The notes beneath the pieces are model-generated. The model was given only the letters and a program-made list of their open reading frames with translations, was not told the DNA's origin and ran no database searches. A DNA stretch of 63,271 nt, filler included. It is 8 parts of 8 records of this genome, joined end to end, with 100 filler letters (N's around TTAATTAATTAA, not from the genome) between each part and the next. Parts side by side here need not be neighbours in the genome. Positions count along the whole stretch, not along the records: positions 36,634 to 46,300 come from SRR31156797_39831; 7 more parts are not named here. The stretch is one strand, 5' to 3'. The position numbers and the translations under genes were made by a program. Numbering within the stretch: position 1 is the stretch's first letter; the number at the start of each line of letters is the position of its first letter. This document shows, piece after piece, positions 8,764 through 51,979 of the stretch.

Positions 8764-8863
8764 NNNNNNNNNNNNNNNNNNNNNNNNNNNNNNNNNNNNN
8801 NNNNNNNTTAATTAATTAANNNNNNNNNNNNNNNNNNNNNNNNNNNNNNNNNNNNNNNNNNNN
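8764..8863. other. Artificial contig spacer
   Basis: N44-TTAATTAATTAA-N44, stops in all six frames. Confidence 0.99.
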
Positions 8864-14349: not shown

Positions 14350-14449
14350 NNNNNNNNNNNNNNNNNNNNNNNNNNNNNNNNNNNNNNNNNNNNTTAATTA
14401 ATTAANNNNNNNNNNNNNNNNNNNNNNNNNNNNNNNNNNNNNNNNNNNN
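14350..14449. other. Artificial contig spacer
   Basis: N44-TTAATTAATTAA-N44. Confidence 0.99.
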
Positions 14450-19675: not shown

Positions 19676-19775
19676 NNNNNNNNNNNNNNNNNNNNNNNNN
19701 NNNNNNNNNNNNNNNNNNNTTAATTAATTAANNNNNNNNNNNNNNNNNNNNNNNNNNNNNNNNNNNNNNNNNNNN
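19676..19775. other. Artificial contig spacer
   Basis: N44-TTAATTAATTAA-N44. Confidence 0.99.
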
Positions 19776-26742: not shown

Positions 26743-26842
26743 NNNNNNNNNNNNNNNNNNNNNNNNNNNNNNNNNNNNNNNNNNNNTTAATTAATTAANN
26801 NNNNNNNNNNNNNNNNNNNNNNNNNNNNNNNNNNNNNNNNNN
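26743..26842. other. Artificial contig spacer
   Basis: N44-TTAATTAATTAA-N44. Confidence 0.99.
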
Positions 26843-32252: not shown

Positions 32253-32834
32253 ATGCACAGCACAGACGAAGAGCTTTTACAAGAAATAAAACGGGATAAA
32301 CAAATTGCACTTGAAAAATTACATTATAGATATTACCAGTTACTCTGCAATTTTGCTTATTCATTTGTAAAAAGCGTCGATTTTGCAGAAGAAGTGGTGT
32401 CCGATGTTTTCCTTAACATTTGGATAAAACGCAACTCCTTGAATATCAACTCAAGCATTAAATCATACCTTTATATTTCAGTAAAAAATCAATCTCTCAA
32501 TTTTCTTAAAGCTCAAAAAGACACCTTTGAAGCAATTGAAGAAAATAGTTTCGAAAATAAATTTTCGGAGCACAATGCAGATGCACAGATTACGTACACA
32601 GAAACATTGAATAGAATTGAAAAAATAATTAAGGAACTCCCCCCTCAACGTCAAACTATTTTTCGTTTAAACCGAATTGATGGTCTTAAATACAAAGAAA
32701 TAGCAGAAGTTTTATCCATCTCTGTTAACACGGTTCAAAAACAAATGACCGAAGCGATTAAGTACATTTCAAAATATTATTCTCAAAATATACTAATACT
32801 CCTTACTCTTTTCCTGTCGCATTTTTCCTCTTAA
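32253..32834 (+). CDS. ECF sigma-70 factor (FecI-like, Bacteroidota type)
   Basis: AEEVVSDVFLNIW, SYLYISVKN, LPPQRQTIF, LKYKEIAEVLSISVNTV. Confidence 0.94.
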   Translation: MHSTDEELLQEIKRDKQIALEKLHYRYYQLLCNFAYSFVKSVDFAEEVVSDVFLNIWIKRNSLNINSSIKSYLYISVKNQSLNFLKAQKDTFEAIEENSFENKFSEHNADAQITYTETLNRIEKIIKELPPQRQTIFRLNRIDGLKYKEIAEVLSISVNTVQKQMTEAIKYISKYYSQNILILLTLFLSHFSS

Positions 32835-32926
32835 TCTTTCTTTAATATTTACTTCATTTTTTATTAATCAGCTTCAATGGTAGCTCTTTCAAACAATTCT
32901 TGTCATACAGGTGTAAGAACATCAAA

Positions 32927-34117
32927 ATGGATAAGAATAAATTTTACGAATTAGCAGCAAGAGTTTTAGCAAACGAAGCAAATTCTTCTGAACAAGAATG
33001 TTTAAATAATTTACTTGAAGTTAGAAAATACCGTAAACTCTTTGAATGGCTAAAGGCTGAATGGGAGAAAGAAGTATTAATGGGAAATATTGATTTCGAC
33101 TATGAAACGGGTATCGAAAGACTACGTTCAAAAATTGCGGCATCAGAAGAAAAAGCTGTTCTACAAACAAGGGTGATTCCTATGAAACGAAGGCTTTCTC
33201 AAATTGCGGCAATTAGCATCTTGTTAATTACGAGCAGTATTATATACCTTCAGTTTAGAACAACCGAACCGAAAATTACTGCTTTTGCCGAAAACAATAA
33301 GCAGGGAATTACATCCGGCGAAACAAGATTGATATTGAATGGCCGGGAAGAAATTGAGATTTTAAGTAAAAATGCCGAAATTGATTACAGCTCTAAAGAT
33401 GGGATCGTTGTTGTTAACGATTTGCAAGAAATAAAACAAGATATTAAACAAGATGAGACCACTTATAATACTGTTATTGTTCCTTACGGGAAACGCAGTA
33501 AAATAACATTAGCCGATAATAGCGTAGTGTGGTTAAACTCAGGCTCCAAGTTCATTTATCCGGCAAAGTTTTCCCAGAAAAAACGTGAGGTATTCCTTGA
33601 AGGAGAAGCACTATTTGAAGTAGAACACGATACTAATAAACCCTTTACCGTTTTAACAAACAATATTGAGATCAAGGTATTGGGAACCGTTTTTAACGTA
33701 AGCGCATACAGCGACGATGCTTTTACAAACACGGTGTTGGAAAGTGGAAGTGTTGAAATTGATTATCCGGGCAAGTCCAGAATAAAGCACAGGAAATTAA
33801 GAATAGAACCCGGAACCTCTGCTATCTACAATCTATTGGAAAAAACAATTCAGAAAAAGAAAGTAAATCCCAAATATTACACCAGCTGGCGTGAAGGTAT
33901 TTTATTATACCAACACCAGTCTCTGGAAGAAATCGTAAAAAAACTTTCAAGGTATTACAATACCAACATTCAAATTGAAAATCAGGAACTTGCCATTACT
34001 CGTTTCTCAGGTAAGCTCGATCTAAAAGAAGATGTACAAAAAGTTTTAGAAACCATTGCTTTTGCATCTGACCTTGAGATAGTAAGCAAAAACAACCAGT
34101 TGATAATAAAAAATTAG
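32927..34117 (+). CDS. fecR: FecR family anti-sigma factor
   Basis: TM then VPYGKRSKITLADNSVVWLNSGS, REVFLEGEALFEV, VLGTVFNV, LSRYYN, FSGKLD. Confidence 0.94.
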   Translation: MDKNKFYELAARVLANEANSSEQECLNNLLEVRKYRKLFEWLKAEWEKEVLMGNIDFDYETGIERLRSKIAASEEKAVLQTRVIPMKRRLSQIAAISILLITSSIIYLQFRTTEPKITAFAENNKQGITSGETRLILNGREEIEILSKNAEIDYSSKDGIVVVNDLQEIKQDIKQDETTYNTVIVPYGKRSKITLADNSVVWLNSGSKFIYPAKFSQKKREVFLEGEALFEVEHDTNKPFTVLTNNIEIKVLGTVFNVSAYSDDAFTNTVLESGSVEIDYPGKSRIKHRKLRIEPGTSAIYNLLEKTIQKKKVNPKYYTSWREGILLYQHQSLEEIVKKLSRYYNTNIQIENQELAITRFSGKLDLKEDVQKVLETIAFASDLEIVSKNNQLIIKN

Positions 34118-34155
34118 TTGCCTATGATATAAAATCCTAACCAAATTAAAAAACA

Positions 34156-34186
34156 ACCGGAGAATGTGATCCAGACATTCCCCGGC
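34156..34186 (+). promoter_or_regulatory. Hairpin in the fecR-susC intergenic region
   Basis: CCGGAGAATGT-GATCCAG-ACATTCCCCGG preceded by an A-rich run. Confidence 0.5.
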
Positions 34187-34241
34187 TAGCGAAAATTCTT
34201 TACGACCATATGGTCTATAATAAAAATTAACACGTAAATAT

Positions 34242-36533
34242 ATGAAATTTAATATTGAATATGACTCAATTAAGAGTTTGAAGAAACTGTTTTTGATAAT
34301 GAAAGTAATAATTCTACTTTTTATTTCTTCAATTATTACGGCGAGTGCAAGCAATACTTATGCACAGCTAACCAAACTAACTTTAAATGTTGAGCAAGCA
34401 ACAATAATTGAGGTTTTTACCGAAATTGAAAATCAAAGTGAATACATTTTTTTCTATCAGGACGAAAAAATTGACCTCGAAAAGAAAGTAAGTATTCAAG
34501 TTCAGGACAGAACAATTTCTGAAATTTTGGATGAACTATTTGAAAACACCAACAATGTCTACAAAGTTGCTGATCGTCAAATCATTATAGGCAAAGACGA
34601 AACAAAAAACGTACAAGCTCCGAAAAATGGGAAGGTGGGGTCGAAAGTAGAAACGATTGCACCACAGAAAAAAACGATTACAGGTAAAGTTGTCGACGAA
34701 AAAGGGATGCCTCTTCCGGGAGTTTCGGTAATTATAAAGGGAACCACGACAGGAATTACCACCGATTTCGATGGAAACTTCACATTAAAGGTTGACCAAG
34801 ATGCCAAAGTTTTAGTGCTCTCTTTTGTGGGTATGAAAACCCTTGAAGTCTCAATTGACGGGAAACAGAGCCTTAACATTACGCTGTTTGAAGACACCGT
34901 TGGTATTGAAGAAATTGTAACCATTGGATATGCCAAACAAAAGAAGAAAGATGTTACCGGAGCAGTAGCTTCGTTAAAAAGCGAAGACTTTAACAAAGGA
35001 GTTACCAATTCTCCGGGACAGTTACTTCAGGGTAAAGTTTCGGGTGTAAGCATTACCTCATCAAGCGGTGCTCCCGGAAGCGGGCAACGTATTATTATTC
35101 GTGGACAAGGAACAATACGCCAAGGATCGGGGCCATTATTTGTAATTGATGGTTTTCCAATAGGATTAGCCGGAACCGGGTCAGACTCAAGCCCATTAAA
35201 CTTCATTAACGCCGAAGACATTGAAACAATCGATGTTCTTAAAGATGCTTCGGCTACCGCAATTTATGGTTCGCGTGGAGCAAATGGTGTAATCATGATT
35301 AATACAAAAAAAGGAAAATCAGGAGCTTCTCAATTGTCTATTTCTTCACATGTAGGTGTATCTAAAATTGCAAAAAAACTGCCCTTATTAAGTGCCGATG
35401 AGTTTCGAGATAAAGTAGTTGAGATTGGTGGTGTTTTGGAAGACCGTGAAGGTAATACCGATTGGCAAGATGAATTAACCCAAACGGCTATTACGCAAGA
35501 CTACAATCTAATAATGTCGGGAGGAACAGACAAACTAACCTATCGTGCTTCTGTTGGTTATTTAGATCAGGAAGGTATAATTATAAATACTGGAATAAAA
35601 AGATACAGTGGAAGATTAAATGCTACCCAGAAATTATTGGATGGCAAGTTGAATATTGATTTTAACCTGAACACAACAATTGAGAAGGGCGAAAACGCCG
35701 AGTCGAGCACAATCGTTGCAAATATGTTAAGTTTTAACCCTACTTACCCTGCTTATGACGAAAATGGAGAGCCAAGCAAATATCCTGATTTAATCAATCC
35801 GCTAAGTCAGGCTGAATTATTTAAAACGTTTAGTGAAAGCCGTAACATCATTGCCAATATCGCTCCGTCTTTCGAAATTATTGATGGTTTAACATACAAG
35901 CTAAACTTTGGATACACCAACAGCTCAAGCGATTACGATTACCAAGAAATGCCAAGTGTAGACCCATACGTTGAAGGTAGACTTGAACAAAGTTTCTCGA
36001 ATGGAGAAAATACATTAATTGAAAACTACCTCACATATAATTTTGATATTCAAGACCACAATGTTATTCTTCTTGCAGGTCATTCTTTCCAAAAAACGGA
36101 GAACAGATCAAGAAGCTGGAATATTGATCAATTTGAAGCTAACGGCATTGAACCTCGCTATAATCCTGGGTTAGGCCAACGCCTCGATCTATCTTTAAAC
36201 AGGCCAAGTGGATCTGCTACCATCGACGAATTGCAATCGTTTTTCGGAAGAGCATCTTATAACTTCAAAGGTAAATACCTGGTTACAGGAACTGTCCGTT
36301 CCGATGGCTCGTCTAAATTCGGGAAAAACAACAGGTACGGAACATTCCCTTCGTTTGCTGCTGGTTGGCGAATCTCTGAAGAGAATTTTATGGAATCTTC
36401 TCCCTTTAGCAATTTAAAACTTCGTGCCGGGTGGGGACAAACGGGTAACCAGGAAATCCCTTCAAAAATTACCCAGGAGTCTTTCCAGTCATCAAACAGT
36501 GGTGACTATACCTACCCCTTAACCGAAACCGGT
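34242..36533 (+). CDS. susC: SusC/RagA TonB-dependent transporter with N-terminal STN signalling domain (3' truncated)
   Basis: IENQSEYIFFY (STN), PLPGVSVIIKGT, IIIRG, PLFVIDG, DIETIDVLKDASATAIYGSRGANGVI, RSDGSSKFG. Confidence 0.96.
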
Positions 36534-36633
36534 NNNNNNNNNNNNNNNNNNNNNNNNNNNNNNNNNNNNNNNNNNNNTTAATTAATTAANNNNNNNNNNN
36601 NNNNNNNNNNNNNNNNNNNNNNNNNNNNNNNNN
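36534..36633. other. Artificial contig spacer
   Basis: N44-TTAATTAATTAA-N44. Confidence 0.99.
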
Positions 36634-38675
36634 TCATTTACATTTTTTGATTCAATTGAGTTTAATTTATTAAGCAATCTTACTTCTGAATACTGATTAT
36701 TATCAGGATCCATAGCTTCTGTTACACCGTCTGTATATGTGAAAACTATATCTCCTTCTTCAAGTTTATCTTGCTCAAGTGCATATTCAAATCCTGACAT
36801 TCCACCAAGAACAAAACCTTTTTTAAGCTCCATATATGAGAATTTCCCCTCTGAAGCTCGATAAATCAGTGGTGGGTTATGCCCTGCATTTGCATACTCG
36901 ATAGCCCCTGTTTGCAGGTCTATTATAAAAACTATACTTGTTGTAAATAAGAATTCATCATTATCTTCACACAACATGTTATTTGCACTATTAAAAATTT
37001 CATGCGCAGGAATATTTCTTAAAGCTTCATTTTTAACAAGAACTTTTGAAATAACCATAAATAGAGAAGCCGGAACACCTTTACCTGAAACATCTCCAAC
37101 TGTAAAACAGAACTTATTCTCATTTATGAAGAAGAAATCAAAATAATCTCCTCCAACATTTTTCGCTGGTTGCATACTTCCAAAAATACTTATATCTGTT
37201 CTATCTGGGAAAGGAGGGAAAATTCTAGGCAGCATACTGGCCTGAATTTTATTCGCAACTTGCAATTCTCCTTCGATTCTTTCTTTTGCAGCTGTTGTTT
37301 CCTTGAGATCATGTATATATGTTTTAAGATCACCTGTCATCTTATTATATGTATTTGCTAATACTTCTAGTTCATCTTTTGTATTAATTTCAATTTTGCT
37401 GTCAAGATCACCATTTCCCAATTTGCTAACTCCATCTGTTAATTTAAGAATTGGTTTAACTATAAAACTTGCAAATTTACTTGATATAAACACAACAATT
37501 ATTATTACGACTATAAATATTAAAATTATTGTTCTCAAGCTGTTTTGGAAACTTTTTTTGGAATATTCTGTCATGATTTGACCAGCTTTATCAATTTCGC
37601 CTCTACTTTTATTTACATAACTCATAATTTCATCAGTAAAAGCTACTACTACTATATTCCAAGATGTACTTTCAATAGGTGAATACGCAGCAATTCTAGA
37701 AACATTATTTACTTCCAGTTCGAATACTCCCTCTTTTTCACCAGCTATTTTAGCTGCTAAACTTTGAAGTTCTTTATTTGAAGATTTTGAAATATTTTGA
37801 CTTTCTCCAATAGTTTTTTGTAACTCATCGCTTAATTTTGTATATGTCAAAACCTTACCGGTATTATCTGTTATAAAAACTTCACCTATGTCTTTGACCT
37901 GAGTACTTAATATATCAAGCATAGCATTTAAAGTAACATCTATTCCTATCACACCTTTTAATTTGCCGTTATTATAAGTAGGACTGTAACAAGTTAGTGT
38001 ATAATCATTCGATGCTACATCTACATACATTTCAGACCATGCAATTTCTTTCTTTGCCTTTGCTTCCATATACCATGGTCTTTTTCTTGCGTCATATGTC
38101 TTATTATAATATGCAAGCCATGTCATGTTAAAAAATACACCTGATTCACTCCCAATATACACTCCATCTACAGATAAAGGAAGTATATCCATGGACTTAT
38201 TATTTGAAACTATCGATCTAAATAGCGTATTTAATTTACCTAATGTTTTTATATCTTTTTCAACTTTTCTTTCATTTACTCTCGGTGCTAAACTATAGTA
38301 AAAATCTAAGTTTGGATTGTCTTTTGTAACAGTTAATTTTTTGTACGAAGAGGAGTTTGCGCTATTTGGATTTCTCCATAACTCTTCGACAAAATCTGTT
38401 GCAATTGTAATTTGAGCTTCAATAGTTTTGAATACATAGTTACTGTTTGCTGCTTGCGATGATACCAATCTTCTTAGATATCTTGATGCCTGTGCTTTCA
38501 ATCCCTCTTCACTTGTTGCAGACGCTTCATCTTTTAGAAGGTTAATAGCATTAATAGAGTTTCCCGCTTCTTTTTTGACTGTATATTGTGTAGCGGCTAA
38601 AAACAGTGAAAGTGAGATTATGGATATTGTCATCACCATAATTATAATTTTACTTTTAATTTTGAGATGCTTCAT
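36634..38675 (-). CDS. Membrane dCache_1-HAMP-PP2C (SpoIIE/RsbU-type) phosphatase (3' truncated)
   Basis: TM; YDARKRPWY...MYVD...GVIGID Cache motif; TM; HAMP (KPILKL...DELEVLANTYNKM); VGGDYFD, VGDVSGKG, NAGHNPP, YTDGVTEA. Confidence 0.93.
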
Positions 38676-38716
38676 AACTCCTCCTTTTTGGAATTATTTG
38701 TACTTAGTTATAGTAA

Positions 38717-39886
38717 TTAATCTTTTAATATATAATCATTTAATTCTAAACTGTACTTTATCTTCTCTTTTCTTTTGTATTTTTTCATTCCTATATCAAT
38801 AATTCTGTCGACTAATTCACTGGTATAAATCTCTTTGTTATTCCACATCCTTATATATGTTCCGTGAGTCTCCATGCCAGGAATTGTATTTAATTCATTA
38901 AAATAAATTTTGTCATCACACAGAAAAAAATCTAATCTTGCAAAGCCTGATATCTCAAAGGCCTTAAAAATTATTTTGGAATAATTCTCTATTTGCTTAA
39001 CAATACTTTCATCAAGTATTGCAGGAACAATTCCTTTTTTAGATCCAGGTCCATATTTTGCTTCAAAGTCAAAAAATTCATTTTTATAGTTATTAAACTC
39101 TCCAATAGAACTAAAAGAGATCTCTTCACAATCCCCAACTACACCAACGGCTATCTCTCTAGGACATCTGATAGCATTTTCTATTAAAATTTTACTGTCA
39201 TATTGAAATACTTGATTTATAGAATCTATAATATCGTCATAGCTTTGAATCTGAACAATCCCAATAGACGAACCCAATCTACAAGGCTTGATATACAATG
39301 GCAGCTCAAGTTTTGTTTTGATTTGATTAATTATTTCTTGTTGATTCTCTACCCATTCATAGCAATGTAATTTAATATAATCGACTACAGGAACATCATT
39401 TTTTTGACACAATATTTTTGTTACTTCTTTGTCAATTCCTGCAACGGATGATAAAAGACCACAACCTGCATATGGTATATTCATAAATTCCAGCAAACCT
39501 TGAATTGTACCATCTTCGCCGTTCAGTCCATGAAAAACAGGAAATACAATATCATAAACTTTATCAGCTAAATTTTTGAAAAAATTCCCTTCATGTTTTT
39601 TTAAATATGTAGTTGATAAAATTAATTCCTTACTTTCAGCTAAATCAACATTTAGAGTTGGAAATAACTGTTCCGCGTAATCACTAAACAAATCCTCTAT
39701 ATGAGATTTAGTTTCTTCAGAACTAGCAACTGATCCATCTTTGTTAATATAGATTGAGTGTAAGTTATATTTCTTTTTGTCCATATGCAAGATTACATGC
39801 AACGCTGAGATTACAGATATGTCATGTTCGGTTGACTTCCCTCCAAAAACAACAGCAACATTTAATGCTGAATCATTCATGACCAT
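38717..39886 (-). CDS. ddl: D-Ala-D-Ala ligase family ATP-grasp enzyme (atypical acceptor site)
   Basis: FGGKSTEHDIS, HGLNGEDGTIQG, IKPCRLGSSIG, FFDFEAKY, ARLDFF, NELNTIPGM; start could be 39880. Confidence 0.85.
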   Translation of the reverse strand: MVMNDSALNVAVVFGGKSTEHDISVISALHVILHMDKKKYNLHSIYINKDGSVASSEETKSHIEDLFSDYAEQLFPTLNVDLAESKELILSTTYLKKHEGNFFKNLADKVYDIVFPVFHGLNGEDGTIQGLLEFMNIPYAGCGLLSSVAGIDKEVTKILCQKNDVPVVDYIKLHCYEWVENQQEIINQIKTKLELPLYIKPCRLGSSIGIVQIQSYDDIIDSINQVFQYDSKILIENAIRCPREIAVGVVGDCEEISFSSIGEFNNYKNEFFDFEAKYGPGSKKGIVPAILDESIVKQIENYSKIIFKAFEISGFARLDFFLCDDKIYFNELNTIPGMETHGTYIRMWNNKEIYTSELVDRIIDIGMKKYKRKEKIKYSLELNDYILKD

Positions 39887-39906
39887 CACTCCTTCTCCTT
39901 CTAGTT

Positions 39907-42342
39907 TTAACTCTTTACTTTCTGTGCTGTGGCACTAACAAATAAATATATTATTGAAGAGGAAATAGTTATTATTCCTATCAAAAAAATACTTACTGAA
40001 AATCCAAATATTGTTATAAAGAAACTACATATCAGAGGCGAAACAACCATTATGAATCTTTCATATGAATTATATATACTCATAAATTTTGTTTCTCCGA
40101 TATCCTTAGCTTTTTGTGTTGAGGTAATAAAAGACTCTTCAGCAGCATCTGCTATCATGCTTCCTAGTGAGATTCCTGTTATCACTAATACAAAAGCAAC
40201 TATCCCATTTGAAAATTTAAGTATAAGAAGAAAACTTCCTATTATTAAACTTCCTGCGGTTATAAATAATCTATCGTTTTTAATTCTCGCAACCAGTTTA
40301 CTCACAATAGGCATAAGTAAATACACAATTCCAAATATAGTCATTACCCTTCCAATATTTGCTTGGGAAATTCCCTCTTTGTTCATAGTAAGAGGCATCA
40401 TAAATTGAAACACACCTACATAAACTAGATGAAAAGGAACTAACCTAAAAAAGAAATTTGCAAATACATTTTTATCATTGAAGATATTAAGTGTTTCTTT
40501 AAAGCTTAAATTAGAAAGTTTTTCAGTCTGTTTCTCTTCACTAATCTCTTCTTTACGATTTTCATGCACGATACTTTTTGCAATCGCAAGTCTACGCATA
40601 TAAATCAAAGAAAATACTAGTAATAAAAAGGCGATTATTGCAGAACACAATAGTGCAGTTACAAAACCAAATCTGTAAACTAAAACTCCACCAATCGGTA
40701 ATGCACATATTGATGCAGCTCCATAACCACTTGCCCAATATCCAAATCCAATTGCTACGTTTCCATGTTTAAATGACTTCAAAATAAGTGCAGTTGAATT
40801 TATAGTAATTCCACCAAATCCTAATCCTGATAAAAATCTAAAGAAAGCCAGACTAGGTATGCTTGTTGACAACGCAGCTCCTACAGCTCCAATTATTAGT
40901 AAAACAGTACATTGCGAAAGAATTTTTCTCTCAGAGATTTTTCCTGCTAAATATCCTACTACTAATACAGATATTGCTGACCCAAACATATATGTCGTTA
41001 TTGGAAAACTTAGAGTTGCATTTACAGATAAACCTAAAATATACATTGGGTTATTATGGTGGATCTTTTCTATTAAGAGAGGCATAAATGATATTGGCAT
41101 CATCTCTCCAAAATAAAATATAAATGAAATTAACTGAATTATTATCTTCTCGTTCTCCAGAGTTGCTTTTTCAGCTAGTTCCTCATCTTTTTTATTTACT
41201 CTTTTCATTGTTGCAAATAGAAGAAGCTGATAACTTATAATCAATGAAATTATCAATACAGTTCCCGCATCCAAAAGTAACTCCATTGTTTTTTTTGCAA
41301 TTATTTTTTCATTTAGGAGAATAAAAATTGTACCTTTTGAATTTTTATTATAGTTAAAATTTGCTCTTCTATAAGATTGATTTTTAGTACTTGTAATGTT
41401 TAATTTTCCTATTTCTTTTTGAAAAATAGTTTTAGTTTTATCTTCAAAATCTGCCATATAAAGTATATTTTGTGATCTATCCGTAATCAAAATTTCTTTT
41501 GCTTCCGGCACTTCTTTTATCTCTCTCGATAGATATTTCTCAAATCCGTTTAATCTATTTAATTTCAAGCCTAAATCTGAAAAATATTTTATTTCACTAT
41601 CTATTGCTTTAGAAAAATTTGCAATATTTTCATTTAAAATACTCGTATACTTATTTCTAAAATAGTCTATATTAATATATGAGTAAAATAGTTGTGATAC
41701 GAAAAAAACAATAAGTATAAATATAAAATAAACCTTTTCTCTACTACTTCTTATGAAAATAATAAATAGTGCCAATAAAAGTACAGTTATCGTCAAGGTG
41801 TTAAGAAATATATTCCAGTTCTCCCATACCATCGCTCTAACTTCTTTACTAATAACGGATTTTGGAAATTCTATAAATACATAACCTTCTATTTGATTAT
41901 TTGCAGTTTCGCTATTATCGGAATAAATGGCTGACGATATATAATAGTTGTTTGCAGCTTGAGCAACTTTTACTTTTTCATCACTATTTTTCGGAAGTAA
42001 TGAATCAATAATCTCTCTATTAATATAACTCTCATCGTAACTGTAATAAACATTTCCTTGTTTTGAAGTAATAAATACATTTGAAATATTTTTATCGTCA
42101 TTTATTATTTCATCAAAAAATATCTCGATTCCACTAAATTTGTGAAGTGGTTTCCCAAGATTAACAGCTGTTTCTATTTTTTTTGTCAAGTTTCTATTTA
42201 TTAGAATATATCTTGAGCTAAGTGAAGTTCTAAACACCTCTTCAAATGAAGACATATTTAGTAGAAAATTTAAAATTAAAGACACAGTTAGAATTACCGC
42301 AGATACCAAAAACACTTTAAGTCTGATTCTACCTGTTCTCAT
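39907..42342 (-). CDS. MFS transporter fused to an N-terminal region with two extracytoplasmic domains
   Basis: About 400-aa TM-soluble-TM-TM-soluble-TM region, then about 12 TM with GYLAGKISERK and FRFLSGLGFG; start placed after the GAGGGTG SD, overlapping the SBP stop. Confidence 0.8.
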   Translation of the reverse strand: MRTGRIRLKVFLVSAVILTVSLILNFLLNMSSFEEVFRTSLSSRYILINRNLTKKIETAVNLGKPLHKFSGIEIFFDEIINDDKNISNVFITSKQGNVYYSYDESYINREIIDSLLPKNSDEKVKVAQAANNYYISSAIYSDNSETANNQIEGYVFIEFPKSVISKEVRAMVWENWNIFLNTLTITVLLLALFIIFIRSSREKVYFIFILIVFFVSQLFYSYINIDYFRNKYTSILNENIANFSKAIDSEIKYFSDLGLKLNRLNGFEKYLSREIKEVPEAKEILITDRSQNILYMADFEDKTKTIFQKEIGKLNITSTKNQSYRRANFNYNKNSKGTIFILLNEKIIAKKTMELLLDAGTVLIISLIISYQLLLFATMKRVNKKDEELAEKATLENEKIIIQLISFIFYFGEMMPISFMPLLIEKIHHNNPMYILGLSVNATLSFPITTYMFGSAISVLVVGYLAGKISERKILSQCTVLLIIGAVGAALSTSIPSLAFFRFLSGLGFGGITINSTALILKSFKHGNVAIGFGYWASGYGAASICALPIGGVLVYRFGFVTALLCSAIIAFLLLVFSLIYMRRLAIAKSIVHENRKEEISEEKQTEKLSNLSFKETLNIFNDKNVFANFFFRLVPFHLVYVGVFQFMMPLTMNKEGISQANIGRVMTIFGIVYLLMPIVSKLVARIKNDRLFITAGSLIIGSFLLILKFSNGIVAFVLVITGISLGSMIADAAEESFITSTQKAKDIGETKFMSIYNSYERFIMVVSPLICSFFITIFGFSVSIFLIGIITISSSIIYLFVSATAQKVKS

Positions 42343-43534
42343 TAACATCACCCTCAATCGAATAATATACTTCATCAGCACTTCTGATTATATCAATTGG
42401 CAAATCATAACCTATCAATTCAGCAGTTTTCAAATTAATTGATATTCTTGGTATTTTTTCAAATTTTTGATTTAGTTCTCTCGGAAGTGTTCCGGTTAAA
42501 ATCTTAATTAGTTTTTTTGCATTATATAGACCTGCTTCTTTTCCTGAAACTCCCAACATAACTCCTTTTTTTACTGCCGGAGATCCCTCCATTGTAAAAG
42601 AAGGCAGCTTGTAATCTATTAACTTGTTTACAACATTTGGAACGTTATCAGGCTCAAGTCCACCTGAAATCCCAAGAAACATAGCATCTGATTTTGGACA
42701 TACTCTATCCATAGCATCTAGATAAAGTTTATAGGCCATTTTATACTCTTCAACTGTTGGCTCAGCCATTACATCATGTCCTTTTATAATTTCGAAACCT
42801 CTTTCATCAGCTACTTTTTCTACGGAATCAACTGCAGCATAACTTCTGCCGTTCTCACTATTTTCATATATTAAGCCCAAATTATCAAAGCCTATTACTT
42901 CAAAGAAAAGATTAACCTGTCTGATATATTGCTGTTCATCTAATCTCGCTGTAATAAAATCATGTCCTGAATCTTCAATAGAATCAACAAAACCCGATCC
43001 TATCGGATCAGATACTGCATCCATCAAAGTAAACGTTTTATAGTCAGGATCACTTAATACTTCTCCACTTGCTAGAGTTCCCAGAAGTATAACAGCATCA
43101 ATTTCATTCGCCTTCGCTTTTCTCATAATTTGTTTAAACTCATTCTTATCACGATTCTCAGAATCAGCACGAAAACTAAAAAACATCTGTGGACTTAATT
43201 CTAAATACTCACTATAGTCACTTCCCTGAATCCCATTAATAAATTCTCTATTAGATTTATAGTTCTCTTTTTTAAGGCTTTCAACTTCATTTACCCATCC
43301 CATTAATTGAAGACCACCAATTATTGCGCTAAATGTTTCGTAATATTCGGGATAATCATCACTTTGTATAACTGCAATTTTAAATTTTTTTGTTACTTCA
43401 AACTCTTCAATAGAGGAGTTTGAAGTAGAGTCCGCCTCTTCTTTGAAGATAGAAGAGGCTTCATCATCACTTTGAAAACATCCCAAAAATACAGAGGTAA
43501 AAATTATGATTATTACTTTATAAAAAGCACTCAT
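42329..43534 (-). CDS. Substrate-binding lipoprotein (ABC_sub_bind family)
   Basis: Lipobox FLGC; ILLGTLA, AVSDPIGSG, LGLIY, VKKGVMLG, SINLKTAELIG..P..I...AD. Confidence 0.85.
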   Translation of the reverse strand: MSAFYKVIIIIFTSVFLGCFQSDDEASSIFKEEADSTSNSSIEEFEVTKKFKIAVIQSDDYPEYYETFSAIIGGLQLMGWVNEVESLKKENYKSNREFINGIQGSDYSEYLELSPQMFFSFRADSENRDKNEFKQIMRKAKANEIDAVILLGTLASGEVLSDPDYKTFTLMDAVSDPIGSGFVDSIEDSGHDFITARLDEQQYIRQVNLFFEVIGFDNLGLIYENSENGRSYAAVDSVEKVADERGFEIIKGHDVMAEPTVEEYKMAYKLYLDAMDRVCPKSDAMFLGISGGLEPDNVPNVVNKLIDYKLPSFTMEGSPAVKKGVMLGVSGKEAGLYNAKKLIKILTGTLPRELNQKFEKIPRISINLKTAELIGYDLPIDIIRSADEVYYSIEGDVNENR

Positions 43535-43558
43535 TTTTTATCCTCCTCTGGTTTAAGT

Positions 43559-43969
43559 TTATATCGATTTTTCCATAAACAAGATATTTTGTCCATTTTT
43601 TCTTACATAACTTACATTATCCATTATCTGTTTTATCATAAATATGCCTAGTCCGCCGATCTCTCTTTCTTCCATGGAAAGAGTAATATCAGGATCTTCT
43701 TTTTTTAAAGGATCAAATTCCATTCCACTATCAATTACTGAAATAGAGAATAGTTTTTTCTCCGGGTCATCATTATATTGAATCTCCAACTCTCCCTCTT
43801 GATCACCGTAGGCATAGTTTATGACGTTTACAAATGCTTCTTCACATACTAGACGAACCTTTCCTTCAAGTTTAGTGTCATTTCCGCTAAGTTTATTGAC
43901 ATTATTTACAACAAAGTCAATCATGGAGTCTAGATTTTCCAAAATCGCCTTTGTTTTATATGAATTCAT
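43559..43969 (-). CDS. Anti-sigma factor Ser/Thr kinase (RsbW/SpoIIAB-like)
   Basis: LVCEEAFVNVINYAY, IDSGMEFDP, REIGGLGIFMI. Confidence 0.92.
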   Translation of the reverse strand: MNSYKTKAILENLDSMIDFVVNNVNKLSGNDTKLEGKVRLVCEEAFVNVINYAYGDQEGELEIQYNDDPEKKLFSISVIDSGMEFDPLKKEDPDITLSMEEREIGGLGIFMIKQIMDNVSYVRKNGQNILFMEKSI

Positions 43970-43983
43970 AGGTATCGCCCAAA

Positions 43984-44310
43984 TTACTTATCGTATGAGT
44001 CTTGAATAATTAAGAAATTATCAAGCCCACTCATTTTAACAACTTCAACTACAGGCTCCTGTGCACCAATTAAAAATACTTTTGCTTTCATTCCAATTTT
44101 TTGTTTTGAGAATATGATTACTCTCAATCCTGCACTTGCAATATATTCTAATCCACCGGCTAAATAAGCTATTTCACTTATATCTTGCCCCTGAAATTTT
44201 CTAAGTTCTTCCATTAATCCACCGGCATTTGTTGCGTCTAATCTTCCGGTTAAATTAATTTTAACGATCCCTTGATTTTCTTCAATATTGAATTCCAGTT
44301 TAGAAGCCAT
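43984..44310 (-). CDS. STAS anti-sigma factor antagonist (RsbV/SpoIIAA-like)
   Basis: LTGRLDA, LEYIASAGLR (phosphoacceptor Ser kept), VVKMSGL; AGGAGG SD. Confidence 0.92.
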   Translation of the reverse strand: MASKLEFNIEENQGIVKINLTGRLDATNAGGLMEELRKFQGQDISEIAYLAGGLEYIASAGLRVIIFSKQKIGMKAKVFLIGAQEPVVEVVKMSGLDNFLIIQDSYDK

Positions 44311-44362
44311 TATCATTCCTCCTATTTTTTATAAATTAATTCGGTTATTCAACTTTTTAACA

Positions 44363-44399
44363 ATCTTTATAGGGTGTATCTCATACGCCCTATAAAGAT
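44363..44399 (-). terminator. Long stem-loop between glgX and the STAS gene
   Basis: ATCTTTATAGGGTGTAT-CTC-ATACGCCCTATAAAGAT, 17-bp stem; no long U tract on the coding strand. Confidence 0.6.
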
Positions 44400-44409
44400 G
44401 TTATGTTTT

Positions 44410-46300
44410 CTATTTCTTTTTACCAATTAAAACTACTACTGATCTTGAACCTACTAAAACTTCATTTTGATTTTCCAGATAAACTTCTTCTCCAGTTGCC
44501 CATGCATCTTCTGGTGATGGCATACCTGTATTCATCGCAAGGTGCCATTCAACCCCTTCTGGTAGAGATGGAATCTCAAATCCATGCATTTCCCAGTGAA
44601 GATTCATCGCTACATAGATATACTCATCTTCATCAGTTCCATACTTGCTGGCAGGTCCACAAAACATTACAGCTAAAGTTAACGTTGAAGCATTATAGTC
44701 TAAATTCCAAGACTCTACTCCATGCCAAGATATTTCAGGATAACCAGTTTCAGTATAATAACTATCAAAGTGGCTAACTCTGAGAACTGGATGATCTTTT
44801 CTAAATGCTATTAATTTTTGTGTAAAATTAAATATATCTTTATTTTCTTTTAGATTATCCCAATTAAGCCAAGATATTTCATTATCCTGACAATAAGCAT
44901 TATTATTTCCGAACTGAGTATTTCCAAACTCATCTCCAGCTAATAACATAGGAATACCACGGCTTAGCATTAAAATTGTTAATGCATTTTTAATTTGTTT
45001 TCTACGAAGTTTGTTTATCTCTGTATCTTCAACTTCGCCTTCGTAACCACAATTCCAACTATGATTGTCATTTCCACCATCATTATTGTTTTCACCATTT
45101 GCAATATTATGTTTTTCATTATATGAAACCATATCCATTAGTGTAAATCCATCATGACATGTTATGAAATTTATAGAAGCAGTCGCTCCACGATTTTCCC
45201 AACCATATAGATCAGGCGAACCTTGAATACGTTCAATTACTCCACGTACAACTGCACTTTCCCCTTGTATAAATTTTCTAACATCATCTCTAAATTTACC
45301 ATTCCATTCTGCCCATCTTCCCCAAGATGGAAACGAACCTACTTGATATAGTCCTCCGGCATCCCATGCTTCTGCAATAAGCTTACACTTACCTAGAATA
45401 GGATCAAAAGCCAGTGTTTCAAGTAAAGGTGGATTTGCCATCGGTGCTCCATTTTGATCTCTTGATAATATAGATGCAAGATCAAATCTAAAACCATCTA
45501 TATGATATTCTGACGCCCAATATCTCAAGCAGTCTAATATCATATTTCTAACAATAGGGTTATTACAATTTAGTGTATTTCCACAACCACTGAAATTATA
45601 ATAATATCCTTCCGGTGTTAATAAATAGTACGTTTGATTATCTATTCCTCTATATGAAATATAAGGTCCCATTTCATTACCTTCAGCTGTATGGTTAAAT
45701 ACAACATCCAGAATAACTTCTATTCCATTTTGATGAAATTGTTTTATTAAATTTTTAAGCTCATCGACTTCCATTCCTAATTTCCCGGTTGCTGCATAAC
45801 CAGCTTTGGGAGCAAAAAATCCTACTGTACTATAGCCCCAATAATTTACTAATCGTTCCCCAGTTATATCTGATATTCTGGAGTTTTCAAATTCATCAAA
45901 CTCATATATTGGTAACAGCTCTATACAGTTAATTCCAAGCTCTTTTAAATAAGGAATTTTTTCTATTAACGAAGCATATGTTCCGGGATGTTTAACTTTT
46001 GAAGATTCATGTTTAGTAAAACTTCTAACATGAGCTTCATAAATCAACAAATCTTTCATTTCGATTTCAAGTGGTTTATCATCTTCCCAGTCAAAATCAT
46101 CGAATATTATTCTTGATCTATGTTGGAATTTATCATCCCAATCAGGTTCAACTCCCCAAACCTCTCTACCTCCTATAGCTTTTGCATAAGGATCAAGAAG
46201 AATTTTTTCTTTGTTAAACCAATGTCCCTGACTTTTATCATTGGGACCATCCATTCTAAATCCATACTCTGTATTTTCATAATCAATATCAAATACAACC
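44410..46300 (-). CDS. glgX: Glycogen debranching enzyme / isoamylase, GH13 (5' truncated)
   Basis: LLDPYAK, NYWGY, DVVFNHTAEG, DGFRFDLA, IAEAWD, TCHDGFT, GNNNAYCQDNE. Confidence 0.95.
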
Positions 46301-46400
46301 NNNNNNNNNNNNNNNNNNNNNNNNNNNNNNNNNNNNNNNNNNNNTTAATTAATTAANNNNNNNNNNNNNNNNNNNNNNNNNNNNNNNNNNNNNNNNNNNN
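46301..46400. other. Artificial contig spacer
   Basis: N44-TTAATTAATTAA-N44. Confidence 0.99.
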
Positions 46401-46946: not shown

Positions 46947-48389
46947 TCAGGACTTATAGATCTTCTCGTACTCTTTTGCAGAATACTTCCAGCTGAAATC
47001 TTTTTTCATTCCCGCCTTTTTCATTTTTAAGATATGTGGCTTTCTGTCAAAGTATGTGCTGACTGCCCAACCAACAGTGTCGTAAATTGAATTAGGTGTT
47101 AGATCATTGAATTTAAATCCGGTGCCTTTGCCCGTTTTTTCATCATATTGCTCAATTGTATCTGACAAACCACCTGTATCTCTGACTATTGGAATAGTTC
47201 CGTATTTTAATGAATATATCTGATTAAGTCCACATGGTTCATAGCGTGAAGGCATGATAAAAAAATCACTTCCTGCCTCGATCAGATGAGCAAGTTTATC
47301 GCTATATCCGATGTATGAGCCGATCTTTCCTGGAAATTTTGAAGGAAGTTCGCCAAAATACTTCTCAAGCCCGGGATCACCACTTCCTAAAACAACAAAA
47401 TGAACAGACATTGTTTTAAGAATAGATTCAATTGCACATGCAAGAACATCAAGTCCTTTCTGATCTGCAAAACGGCTGACAACCCCTACTATCGGATATT
47501 TTTCCTTCATATTGAGGCCCATCTTTTCTTTAAGAGCCTTTTTATTTTTCTGTTTAGGTCTTACCTTGCTCAAGGAGTAATTTGCTTCTATTAACTTATC
47601 AACTTCAGGATCCCATTTCTCATAATCAACACCGTTAAGGACACCGATAAATTTTGCACCTTTATCCTTTAAATATGGAGACATTCCATAAGCTTGTTTT
47701 CCACTTGAGATCTCATTTGCATAACTTGGACTTACCGTCGTAATGTAATCAGCAAAATGAATCCCGCCTTTAAGAAGGTTGACCTTGCTGTGATCTTCAA
47801 AGATCTCAGAAGTGAAGTTTTCCCATCCAAAACCCATGTAGTTATAATCAACAGCCGAATATACTCCCTGGTAACCAATGTTGTGAATTGTAAGAACAGC
47901 CTTTGCCTTATCAACTCCACTATCTCCCCAGTCCCAGGTTTTCATATATGCCATAACAGGAGCGGTCTGCCAATCATGGGCATGAATTACATCAGGACGA
48001 AAGTTAAGATCTCTTAGCAACTGAAGAGCTGCTCTGCTAAAAAAACAGTACCTCAGTGCGTTATCGACATAATCATCATTATCAGAATCGCTGTAGATCC
48101 CATCTCTGTTAAAAAACTTATCAAACTCAATGAAATAATAGGTTATTCCCTTTGAAGATGTTTTTTTCACAGCGCACCATTCTTCATTTCCTCCTCCCAT
48201 CCAAACACCCATAGATTTAAAAGAAGTTTTTATTTTTTTACTAGCTTTAAGGCACTTGTAATAAGGAAGAATGACGACAACTTCATGTCCTGATCCTTTT
48301 AAAGCTCCGGGAAGTGACCCTACAACATCGGCTAGTCCGCCTGTTTTTACGAAAGGTTCGGCCTCAGAAGCGATCATTGCGATTTTCAT
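46947..48389 (-). CDS. glgA: Glycogen synthase (GT5)
   Basis: MKIAMIASEAEPFVKTGGLADV, HAHDWQT, TIHN..YQG, MPSRYEPCGLNQ, TGGLSDT; GGAG SD before ATG 48389. Confidence 0.96.
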   Translation of the reverse strand: MKIAMIASEAEPFVKTGGLADVVGSLPGALKGSGHEVVVILPYYKCLKASKKIKTSFKSMGVWMGGGNEEWCAVKKTSSKGITYYFIEFDKFFNRDGIYSDSDNDDYVDNALRYCFFSRAALQLLRDLNFRPDVIHAHDWQTAPVMAYMKTWDWGDSGVDKAKAVLTIHNIGYQGVYSAVDYNYMGFGWENFTSEIFEDHSKVNLLKGGIHFADYITTVSPSYANEISSGKQAYGMSPYLKDKGAKFIGVLNGVDYEKWDPEVDKLIEANYSLSKVRPKQKNKKALKEKMGLNMKEKYPIVGVVSRFADQKGLDVLACAIESILKTMSVHFVVLGSGDPGLEKYFGELPSKFPGKIGSYIGYSDKLAHLIEAGSDFFIMPSRYEPCGLNQIYSLKYGTIPIVRDTGGLSDTIEQYDEKTGKGTGFKFNDLTPNSIYDTVGWAVSTYFDRKPHILKMKKAGMKKDFSWKYSAKEYEKIYKS

Positions 48390-48653
48390 TTTTTCTCCAA
48401 CACTAACTTTTTTACTAAAAAACAAATTTCCACACCTAGACAATTTTAGCTTTCCTGTTGATTTTTGACAAGAAGATTTCATCAAAATAACAAAATTTTT
48501 ATGTTGTTGTATATATTGATATAAAACATGTTTCAACTTTAGTACAGAAAGCGACTTTTTGTTGCATTTTAACAGAAATTTAATTTGACTTTGTCAACTC
48601 GTGAACATAATTTGGGGCGTGTGTTGTTCAAACTTTCTTGACAGGAGACATTG

Positions 48654-51879: not shown

Positions 51880-51979
51880 NNNNNNNNNNNNNNNNNNNNN
51901 NNNNNNNNNNNNNNNNNNNNNNNTTAATTAATTAANNNNNNNNNNNNNNNNNNNNNNNNNNNNNNNNNNNNNNNNNNNN
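51880..51979. other. Artificial contig spacer
   Basis: N44-TTAATTAATTAA-N44. Confidence 0.99.

Follow-up and report, generated by a model that had tools for sequence, protein, structure and literature searches.

Related partner switches and the locus

Partner switches such as RsbU/RsbV/RsbW and SpoIIE/SpoIIAA/SpoIIAB combine a STAS-domain antagonist bearing a conserved serine with a GHKL serine kinase and a PP2C phosphatase. A switch cluster that also contains a debranching gene is the icfG cluster of Synechocystis PCC 6803, which has been implicated in carbon and glucose metabolism. By its published description, the cluster comprises slr1856 and slr1859 for anti-sigma antagonists (STAS proteins), slr1857 for an isoamylase, slr1860 for the PP2C phosphatase IcfG and slr1861 for a kinase (PMC12329169). 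The same description presents Slr1861 as an anti-sigma factor which binds SigC, encoded elsewhere in the genome, and which phosphorylates Ssr1600, Slr1856 and Slr1859, the targets of Slr1856 and Slr1859 being given as not known (PMC12329169). The locus considered here is a set of seven genes around the glycogen debranching gene glgX that fills exactly one contig (positions 36634-46300; 9,667 bp, GC 0.313) of a 63,271-base window, the window being the whole stretch of DNA that was analysed. The contig probably comes from a marine Fusobacteriota bacterium. On balance, the locus is best explained as an icfG-like glgX switch operon of a Fusobacteriota lineage with a three-gene cassette inserted between the kinase and phosphatase genes; it is regarded as a composite of two modules because each module recurs without the other.

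All seven genes lie on the minus strand and, in gene order, encode GlgX, a STAS protein, an RsbW-like kinase, a lipoprotein of the PF04392 family, a major facilitator superfamily (MFS) protein fused to a sensor module, a Ddl-family ligase and a dCache-HAMP-PP2C phosphatase. By the coordinates of the open reading frames (ORFs), the gaps in this order are 93, 14 and 24 nt, followed by an overlap of at most 53 nt (taking the longest ORF) and gaps of 17 and 41 nt. The contig is cut on both sides, with glgX losing its 5' end and the phosphatase gene its 3' end. An earlier note on this DNA had described seven co-directional genes with gaps under 100 nt or overlaps and with truncated ends, and the ORF and domain scans confirm this description. 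Likewise, Pfam and NCBIfam scans of the 9.7-kb contig agree with its statement that no sigma factor, ABC permease or cell-wall (mur/fts) gene is present. Its view of the seven genes as one indivisible system did not hold, as the switch and the cassette each occur separately.

The glgX partner switch

The glgX gene (44410..46300, minus strand) lacks about 75 N-terminal residues and matches TIGR02100 with 653.9 bits (cut-off 640.9) over profile positions 72-685. It is followed by the genes for the STAS-domain antagonist (43984..44316, minus strand; PF01740 44.6 bits, TIGR00377 58.7 bits), which takes the place of the second STAS gene of the icfG-like layout, and for the RsbW/SpoIIAB-like GHKL serine kinase (43559..43969, minus strand; PF13581 84.2 bits). 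The third component, a dCache_1AA-HAMP-PP2C membrane phosphatase of the SpoIIE type (36634..38675, minus strand; Pfam, PF07228 130.8 bits), lacks about 40 residues at its 3' end. Ser61 of the STAS protein aligns with the serine of the DS(S/A)GL stretch of SpoIIAA and TM1442, which we take to be the phosphorylated residue, and the aspartate before it is replaced by alanine. The kinase aligns to RsbW (6M36) with the Glu, Asn, DxG and GGLG stretches matched. In the phosphatase, D510, D513, D528, D649 and G650 are invariant among nine orthologues, and the last DD stretch, which falls beyond the contig end, is present in the orthologue consensus; the full-length orthologues measure 717-729 aa and share 48-60% identity with it. 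The domain matches and conserved residues bear out the earlier proposal that the kinase, STAS protein and phosphatase make up a complete partner switch, and its parts look functional as far as can be judged from sequence.

The tie of this switch to glgX was followed in 190 Fusobacteriota genomes and a sample of 401 Spirochaetota genomes, of which 82 and 181, respectively, had a glgX match; the best 30 loci of each phylum were inspected, those of Fusobacteriota with 1.5-kb flanks. Fusobacteriota switch loci without the cassette are called type A and those with it type B. The type A order, STAS-glgX-kinase-dCache-HAMP-PP2C without the MFS fusion, was found in four of the 30 best Fusobacteriota loci (genomes G130, G126, G131 and G135). 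The proteins of these loci measure 113-116 aa (STAS), 706-707 aa (GlgX), 139-151 aa (kinase) and 728-736 aa (dCache-HAMP-PP2C), the STAS and glgX genes are separated by 3 nt or share 7 nt, and the unit is closed off by a DNA glycosylase gene in convergent orientation. One of the remaining loci is that of G137, described below, and neither a STAS nor a kinase gene was seen in the flanks of the other 25 (45-66% identity). In Spirochaetota, the order glgX-STAS-kinase-PP2C occurs in three of the 30 best loci, preceded in two of the three by a further STAS gene, and nothing of the kind was seen in the other 27. These three loci have by far the highest glgX identity (67-69% to the GlgX of G130), and their second STAS protein and kinase are 48-55% and 41-46% identical to those of the contig studied here.

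The GlgX of the contig is 81% identical to that of G137, 76-78% to those of the four type A genomes and 67-71% to those of the three Spirochaetota genomes. A STAS gene lies directly upstream of glgX in G002 (a second genome with the cassette), in the four type A genomes and in two of the three Spirochaetota switch loci, while the present contig ends inside glgX. The STAS protein of the contig is only 27-32% identical to these upstream STAS proteins, as against 65% to the STAS protein of G137; its kinase is 46-61% identical to the kinases of the type A and type B loci. The link between glgX and the switch is real, because glgX stands inside the switch operon in three phyla, and on this point the earlier note was right. 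Its claim to know of no characterised example was mistaken for this half of the locus, since the icfG cluster has already been described.

The resemblance to the icfG cluster, as described in the literature cited above, consists in the five gene kinds brought together in one cluster and in the debranching gene being flanked by a STAS gene on either side; STAS-glgX-STAS is also the layout of the Spirochaetota and G002 loci. This is a likeness to the published description of the cluster and not one of compared sequences. Unlike in Synechocystis, the kinase gene here precedes the phosphatase gene, with three extra genes between them. The phosphatase of the contig joins dCache_1AA and HAMP domains in a membrane protein. 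RsbU/RsbV/RsbW and SpoIIE/SpoIIAA/SpoIIAB share the three switch components and differ from the present locus, which has no sigma gene in or near the operon, an embedded metabolic enzyme gene and an extracytoplasmic amino-acid sensor as input. This switch, module 1 of the locus, is a new member or variant of the known icfG-like kind, here with a membrane phosphatase predicted to sense amino acids.

Recurrence of the complete gene order

The MFS fusion is present in two of the 190 Fusobacteriota genomes, the metagenome-assembled genomes G137 and G002. In G137, a single 6.6-kb contig carries glgX (81%), STAS (65%), kinase (49%), lipoprotein (55%) and MFS-fusion (51%) genes together with the start of ddl (39%), and the 3' part of the phosphatase gene (58% identity) lies on a different contig. 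G002 has the kinase, lipoprotein and MFS-fusion genes on one contig and the 3' part of ddl with a full-length phosphatase gene (52%) on another. The order is thus found again in other genomes, as had been proposed as a check, and the arrangement is not a matter of chance. A collection of 5.8 billion proteins holds just 12 full-length relatives of the MFS fusion, and those with names come from Psychromonas, Fusobacteriota and Spirochaetales. The best phosphatase (48-60% identity) and the best Ddl matches share their longest-contig sizes with MFS-fusion matches (19750, 10768, 13556 and 16168 bp), which suggests four further metagenomic contigs with the MFS fusion, Ddl and phosphatase, equal sizes being only a hint. 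The loci reported here came from genome searches; a single-protein scan of genome contigs and two scans of metagenome contigs returned no related locus. In G137, the gene after that of the phosphatase (L060:998-1561) encodes a 187-aa protein that is DJ-1/PfpI-like by eye only, and a cupin-like ORF comes next.

Amino-acid input of the phosphatase

The amino-acid motif (AA_motif) of dCache_1AA domains reads YxxxxRxWY, 13-17 residues, Y[x27-34]D, and holds single amino acids by their free alpha-amino and carboxyl groups (PMC8915833). The motif is complete in the phosphatase of the contig (Y194, R199, W201, Y202, Y217 and D246) with the expected spacing, as it is in the dCache_1AA receptors PctA, Tlp3 and Mlp37. 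Unlike in these receptors, the output here is a PP2C phosphatase instead of a chemoreceptor signalling domain, and ligand binding is predicted. All of 17 Fusobacteriota-type phosphatases, with and without the cassette, have the complete motif, although the 17 may include proteins counted more than once under different starts, and it is invariant in nine of nine type B orthologues. The earlier note had inferred that the Cache domain senses the product of the ligase or a precursor of it. This was not borne out: the motif is an ordinary amino-acid motif, and since the same motif is found in operons without the cassette, nothing points to sensing of the ligase product.

According to the passage of a later paper that cites Robrish and Thompson (1988), Fusobacterium nucleatum stores polyglucose during amino-acid fermentation and uses it only once that fermentation stops (PMC4234264). 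An amino-acid input to a glgX switch would fit this physiology, which serves by analogy as a rationale and not as an assignment.

A cassette of binding protein, sensor-fused transporter and ligase

The three genes of module 2 sit between the kinase and phosphatase genes in the present contig, in G002 and in G137, and these two genes adjoin in the type A operons. The first encodes the substrate-binding lipoprotein (SBP; 42329..43534, minus strand; PF04392 53.4 bits, cut-off 25.9), whose LGC lipobox was read from the sequence and whose nearest solved structures are 3LFT and 3LKV. The SBP gene is directly upstream of the MFS-fusion gene in several genomes, with a 4-8-nt overlap. No ABC permease or ATPase gene lies beside it in the contig or in the annotated related loci, where ABC ATPase genes occur only outside the cassette (L041 and L046).

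The second gene (39907..42381, minus strand) encodes an 824-aa protein in which a module of alternating transmembrane (TM) and PDC segments (TM-PDC-TM-TM-PDC-TM) precedes a DHA1-like MFS domain of 12 TM helices (MFS_1 119.9 bits; weak dCache_1 match, E 1.6e-4). An AlphaFold model built on a 22-sequence alignment (pLDDT 81.8, pTM 0.77) predicts TM1, an alpha/beta domain at residues 85-173, TM2, TM3, a second alpha/beta domain at residues 280-356, TM4 and the 12-TM MFS part. Folded alone (pLDDT 79.6), the N-terminal 400 residues match the extracytoplasmic PDC/sCache domains of DcuS, WalK/YycG, CitA, KinD, DctB and Tlp3. In Foldseek comparisons, the MFS half matches MdfA, NorA and VMAT2 (TM-score to target 0.73-0.81); by the model it is a DHA1-like antiporter fold, with substrate and direction as predictions only. 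At E<=1e-30, a search with the N-terminal module as profile matches 210 representative clusters out of 1.84 billion; of the best 150 of these 210, a length of 700-920 aa is seen in 121 and the MFS half in 130. Hence, the fusion is a real and sizeable family. An ESM Atlas search with the N-terminal half gave only unnamed clusters and a weak sCache lead. A natural fusion of SBP and MFS (a "Rosetta stone") was also considered and dropped, as the six longest proteins of the best 150 clusters lack PF04392 and two of them, compared by hhalign, had less than 1% probability against the SBP profile.

In Spirochaetota, 22 of the 401 genomes match the fusion at E<=1e-30 and 13 of them at E<=1e-130, the latter as the whole protein or as fragments at contig ends; the weaker matches cover only the MFS half of other, longer proteins. 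Twelve loci were read, and the genes adjacent to the fusion encode an SBP in 10, a Ddl in eight, an Orr-like racemase in 10 and a HAMP adenylate/guanylate cyclase in 11. The racemase is a pyridoxal-phosphate enzyme most like the ornithine racemase Orr, with 141-195 bits in the three copies scanned (cut-off 480). Two of the loci have a class-I lysyl-tRNA-synthetase-like gene in place of ddl and two SBP domains fused in one protein. These are L047:3905-13536 (TIGR00467 265 bits) and L048:276-9812 (tRNA-synt_1f 263 bits), with double PF04392 proteins of 793-794 aa, and their occurrence with the Orr-like racemase may mean that the substrate is a basic amino acid. Psychromonas sp. MB-3u-54 has the gene for Ddl (CXF72_15115, PKH01778.1) next to that for the MFS fusion (CXF72_15120, PKH01779.1), as judged from locus tags and accessions. 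The cassette is a unit of its own, because it lies among other neighbours in Spirochaetota and because its Ddl and MFS-fusion genes adjoin in Psychromonas; it thus occurs, at least in part, in three phyla, and its neighbours differ between Fusobacteriota and Spirochaetota.

Some Spirochaetota loci have further genes around the cassette. A protein with cyclic-nucleotide-binding (cNMP-binding) domains of the TLC/MFS-HEAT type is encoded in five loci, and four of these (L041, L042, L043 and L045) also have two methyltransferase genes, those of L041 being most like daptide N-methyltransferase. In L041:1-5233, L042:2534-7747 and L043:575-5756, these genes lie upstream of the cassette. The cNMP-binding protein measures 1161-1181 aa there and combines HEAT repeats and a pair of cNMP-binding domains with a membrane part that is TLC/MFS-like, and the two methyltransferases measure 267-286 aa. 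The cNMP-binding protein and the adjacent HAMP cyclase suggest a transport loop gated by cyclic AMP (cAMP). The Orr-like racemase gene of L042 (7778-8448) is split into ORFs of 100 and 123 aa, which may reflect a frameshift or a pseudogene. Genes resembling glycogen/starch synthase lie beside the Orr-like racemase gene in L048:9923-11476 and beside the second ddl of G001 in L008:2-1429, and these may be further links of glycogen genes to Ddl or cassette genes.

The literature, as far as it was searched, contains no description of the triad of SBP, MFS with two PDC domains and Ddl, and none of the papers found on PF04392 concerns this context. TRAP, TTT and TAXI-GltS are the SBP-dependent secondary transporters named in the parts of the literature covered. 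They resemble the cassette in that a binding-protein gene lies directly upstream of, and overlaps, a gene for a secondary transporter with extra periplasmic domains, and they differ in that the membrane part here is an MFS protein instead of DctQM, TctAB or GltS. An SBP-dependent MFS transporter was not found described in the titles and abstract beginnings searched.

The Ddl paralog

The third cassette gene (38717..39889, minus strand) encodes a Ddl paralog of DdlA length (PF07478 176.1 bits, PF01820 107.8 bits), which passes the subfamily model NF002528 (339, cut-off 262) but no equivalog cut-off, and whose best solved relatives are Ddl structures such as 2I87 (E 4e-65). A tree of 17 sequences, from which two distant ATP-grasp proteins and two fragments were excluded, places the nine full-length cassette Ddls (that of the contig and eight of Spirochaetota) in a single clade (support 96/96) that is separate from the other Ddl found in these genomes. 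The earlier note had asked for a check on a separate housekeeping ddl. A second ddl was found in seven of seven genomes checked, in G002 and G137 in the order murB-ddl-ftsQ-ftsA, and in these relatives the cassette gene is not the housekeeping copy.

Like DdlA and DdlB, the cassette protein has both Pfam domains and all catalytic residues (E15, S150, K215, Y216, R255, D257, E270 and N272 in E. coli DdlB numbering). Unlike them, it belongs to a separate clade, is encoded outside the dcw cluster and is altered in the region after the N-x-x-P-G stretch. The roles of these residues, and that of Ser281 in the second D-Ala site, are assumed here as for E. coli DdlB. At the position of Ser281, the contig and G002 copies have Gly and the cassette copies of Spirochaetota have Ser. 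Two of the nine full-length copies, both from Spirochaetota, have Phe instead of Tyr216, a change that is linked with depsipeptide ligases. With the catalytic residues kept and Ser281 changed, the protein looks like an active ligase with a possibly altered second-substrate site. It also differs from Van-type ligases, as it falls far below the cut-offs of the VanG, VanC and VanA models (VanG 256.2 against 495; D-Ala-D-Lac 194.5 against 550).

Proposed mechanism and competing explanations

In the working model, which we infer as regards ligands, contacts, transport direction and output, extracellular amino acids would bind the distal pocket of the phosphatase dCache domain, and HAMP would pass the signal to PP2C, setting the phosphorylation state of whichever STAS protein or proteins are substrates of the kinase. 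In its unphosphorylated form, STAS protein would sequester the kinase, whose other partner would thereby be released or bound. The preferred output is GlgX, as client of either the kinase or a STAS protein; glycogen breakdown would thereby be tied to amino-acid supply. This is put forward tentatively from the gene arrangement: GlgX is preferred because its gene lies between STAS and kinase genes in three phyla and is tightly coupled to the STAS gene. A distal sigma factor as in Synechocystis is, by analogy, nearly as likely an output. Module 2 would be a separately mobile cassette with a dedicated ligase that makes a D-aminoacyl dipeptide and a DHA1-like antiporter domain that moves it, the lipoprotein docking on the two periplasmic PDC domains and thereby gating or informing transport; LuxP-LuxQ is a known pair of SBP and sensor. 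In each lineage, the cassette stands beside a Cache/HAMP membrane sensor, namely PP2C here and adenylate cyclase in Spirochaetota. Only gene position links the two modules.

Several points weigh against this composite reading. The proposed contact of GlgX with the kinase or STAS protein is deduced entirely from gene position. Between five and seven sigma-70 family genes were found in each related Fusobacteriota genome, several in open frames of 260-290 aa, so that a distal sigma target is fully possible; in Synechocystis, Slr1861 is indeed anti-SigC, and sigC is located elsewhere (PMC12329169). The AA_motif is lacking in the phosphatases of the Spirochaetota glgX operons (none of three) and in the cyclases (none of five), so the amino-acid input is lineage-specific, and as 25 of the 30 best Fusobacteriota glgX loci lack switch genes, the physiology of F. 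nucleatum is not assignable to this operon. On the side of the cassette, the second ddl was shown in relatives and not in the genome of the contig itself, and a search of G002 and G137 with a single protein query returned no Orr-like racemase. PF04392 proteins of known ligand bind L-Trp, L-Tyr and L-Phe and not dipeptides, as given in Table 1 of the source (PMC10443332). Moreover, the phosphatase has the AA_motif whether or not the cassette is there, so that the cassette may have no functional relation to the switch and may simply have landed at this site. A signalling role for the cassette is nevertheless still alive, as it recurs beside Cache/HAMP sensors.

The alternative that survives best is that the switch acts only through a distant sigma factor, with glgX as a co-transcribed member of a regulated carbon-metabolism set and the cassette as an unrelated passenger. 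The kinase matches RsbW and SpoIIAB models, the relatives have the sigma-70 genes just mentioned, and the Synechocystis kinase both binds SigC and phosphorylates Ssr1600, Slr1856 and Slr1859 in the account cited in the opening. Simple co-regulation, however, seldom preserves a placement such as that of glgX between STAS and kinase genes in Fusobacteriota, Spirochaetota and (by the literature) Cyanobacteria, where the STAS-glgX gaps are 0-3 nt or the genes overlap. No sigma gene was found within the 8-18 kb inspected at any locus, so that none adjoins a switch, which the earlier note had named as a possible refutation. The same absence had been read there as a sign of a non-sigma target, and this is not established, as the homologous kinase of Synechocystis acts on a SigC that is encoded at a distance. 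As an explanation of the whole locus, the sigma-only account is considered rather unlikely.

A bolder form of the composite reading, in which the triad is an MFS transporter gated by its binding protein and a dedicated D-dipeptide ligase, together feeding Cache/HAMP sensors, with GlgX as a non-sigma client and glycogen breakdown gated in this way, is held to be improbable.

More doubtful still is the single autocrine circuit proposed at first, in which the Ddl paralog would make a D-dipeptide, the MFS protein would export it, the SBP and the phosphatase Cache domain would sense it and the switch would control glycogen mobilisation. The seven genes are co-directional and tightly spaced and keep the same order in G137 and G002, the cassette always has a Cache/HAMP sensor as its neighbour (the PP2C phosphatase here and, in Spirochaetota, a cyclase at 11 of 12 loci), and the MFS half resembles DHA1 exporters. 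However, phosphatases with the same dCache_1AA motif occur with glgX, STAS and kinase genes in the four cassette-free genomes, and the motif is one for the alpha-amino and carboxyl groups of single amino acids (PMC8915833). In a profile comparison, the likeness between the phosphatase and the Spirochaetota cyclase sensors was confined to the membrane-proximal stretch of Cache, TM and HAMP. A ligand module shared by the two sensors was therefore rejected. The shared motif, this limited likeness of the sensors and the known PF04392 ligands place the circuit below the composite reading.

Equally doubtful is a role of the cassette in salvage or remodelling of cell-wall precursors or D-amino acids, with uptake by SBP and MFS, Van-like alternative ligation by Ddl and no signalling: the complete set of catalytic residues, the NF002528 match, the Orr-like racemase of the Spirochaetota cassettes and the changes at Ser281 (Fusobacteriota copies) and Tyr216 would suit it, but the Van models score far below their cut-offs, no VanX-, VanH- or VanT-like or mur gene was seen at any locus scanned, the MFS half resembles exporters, and the two methyltransferases and the cNMP-binding transporter of Spirochaetota loci fit it poorly.

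Other features of the contig and the window

The 93-nt spacer between glgX and the STAS gene contains a palindromic hairpin with a perfect 17-bp stem (44363..44399), found by a scan for terminator-like elements. Possible roles are those of a terminator, an attenuator or a processing site, by which glgX would be set apart from the downstream genes. A scan for promoter-like elements found 50 against 51.3 expected from shuffles, and thus no excess.

The window is made up of eight contigs with spacers of the form N...TTAATTAATTAA...N between them (8764-8863, 14350-14449, 19676-19775, 26743-26842, 36534-36633, 46301-46400 and 51880-51979). The GC content of the contigs ranges from 0.31 to 0.51, so that neighbours in the window need not adjoin physically or share an organism, and the window may be a mixed bin. 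A separate contig carries, at 32253-36533, genes for an extracytoplasmic function (ECF) sigma factor (32253-32834; TIGR02985, a Bacteroidetes-type model), FecR and a STN-CarboxypepD-Plug TonB-dependent receptor whose gene runs off the contig. Together they form a self-contained trans-envelope signalling unit unrelated to the switch; its sigma factor was rejected as that of the switch, being on another contig with its own FecR and TonB-dependent receptor. The contig at 46401-51879 (GC 0.383) begins within an M42 peptidase gene, whose best match is a model of the NAGGN osmoprotectant system below cut-off, and also carries glgA (46947-48536), pta and a cyclophilin gene. Because they lie on separate contigs of different GC content, neither the ECF sigma unit nor glgA is a physical neighbour of the glgX switch.

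Biological significance

The role of the isoamylase gene in the cyanobacterial icfG cluster has so far been unexplained. Its counterpart glgX within switch operons of Fusobacteriota and Spirochaetota implies that the link is old and under selection, and these loci offer simpler, non-photosynthetic systems for asking whether a STAS protein or the kinase has GlgX as its direct client. The amino-acid-binding Cache domain of the phosphatase suggests a mechanism by which amino acids suppress polyglucose breakdown in fusobacteria, an observation cited to 1988, with the caveat that the operon is from a marine lineage and was not seen at the glgX loci of 45-66% identity. The cassette, for its part, defines at least 130 clusters (50% identity) of sensor-fused MFS proteins, which in three phyla occur together with a PF04392 binding protein, with a Ddl paralog of their own or with both. 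If the SBP docks on the transporter, this would be an undescribed class, the third or fourth, of SBP-dependent secondary transport, and the ligase would represent a new use of the Ddl fold outside cell-wall synthesis. If the bolder reading of the triad were true, an amino-acid signal, self-made or environmental, would directly gate glycogen breakdown, and a D-dipeptide signal would be made and exported, or recaptured, and read by a PP2C switch in Fusobacteriota and by a cAMP cyclase in Spirochaetota.

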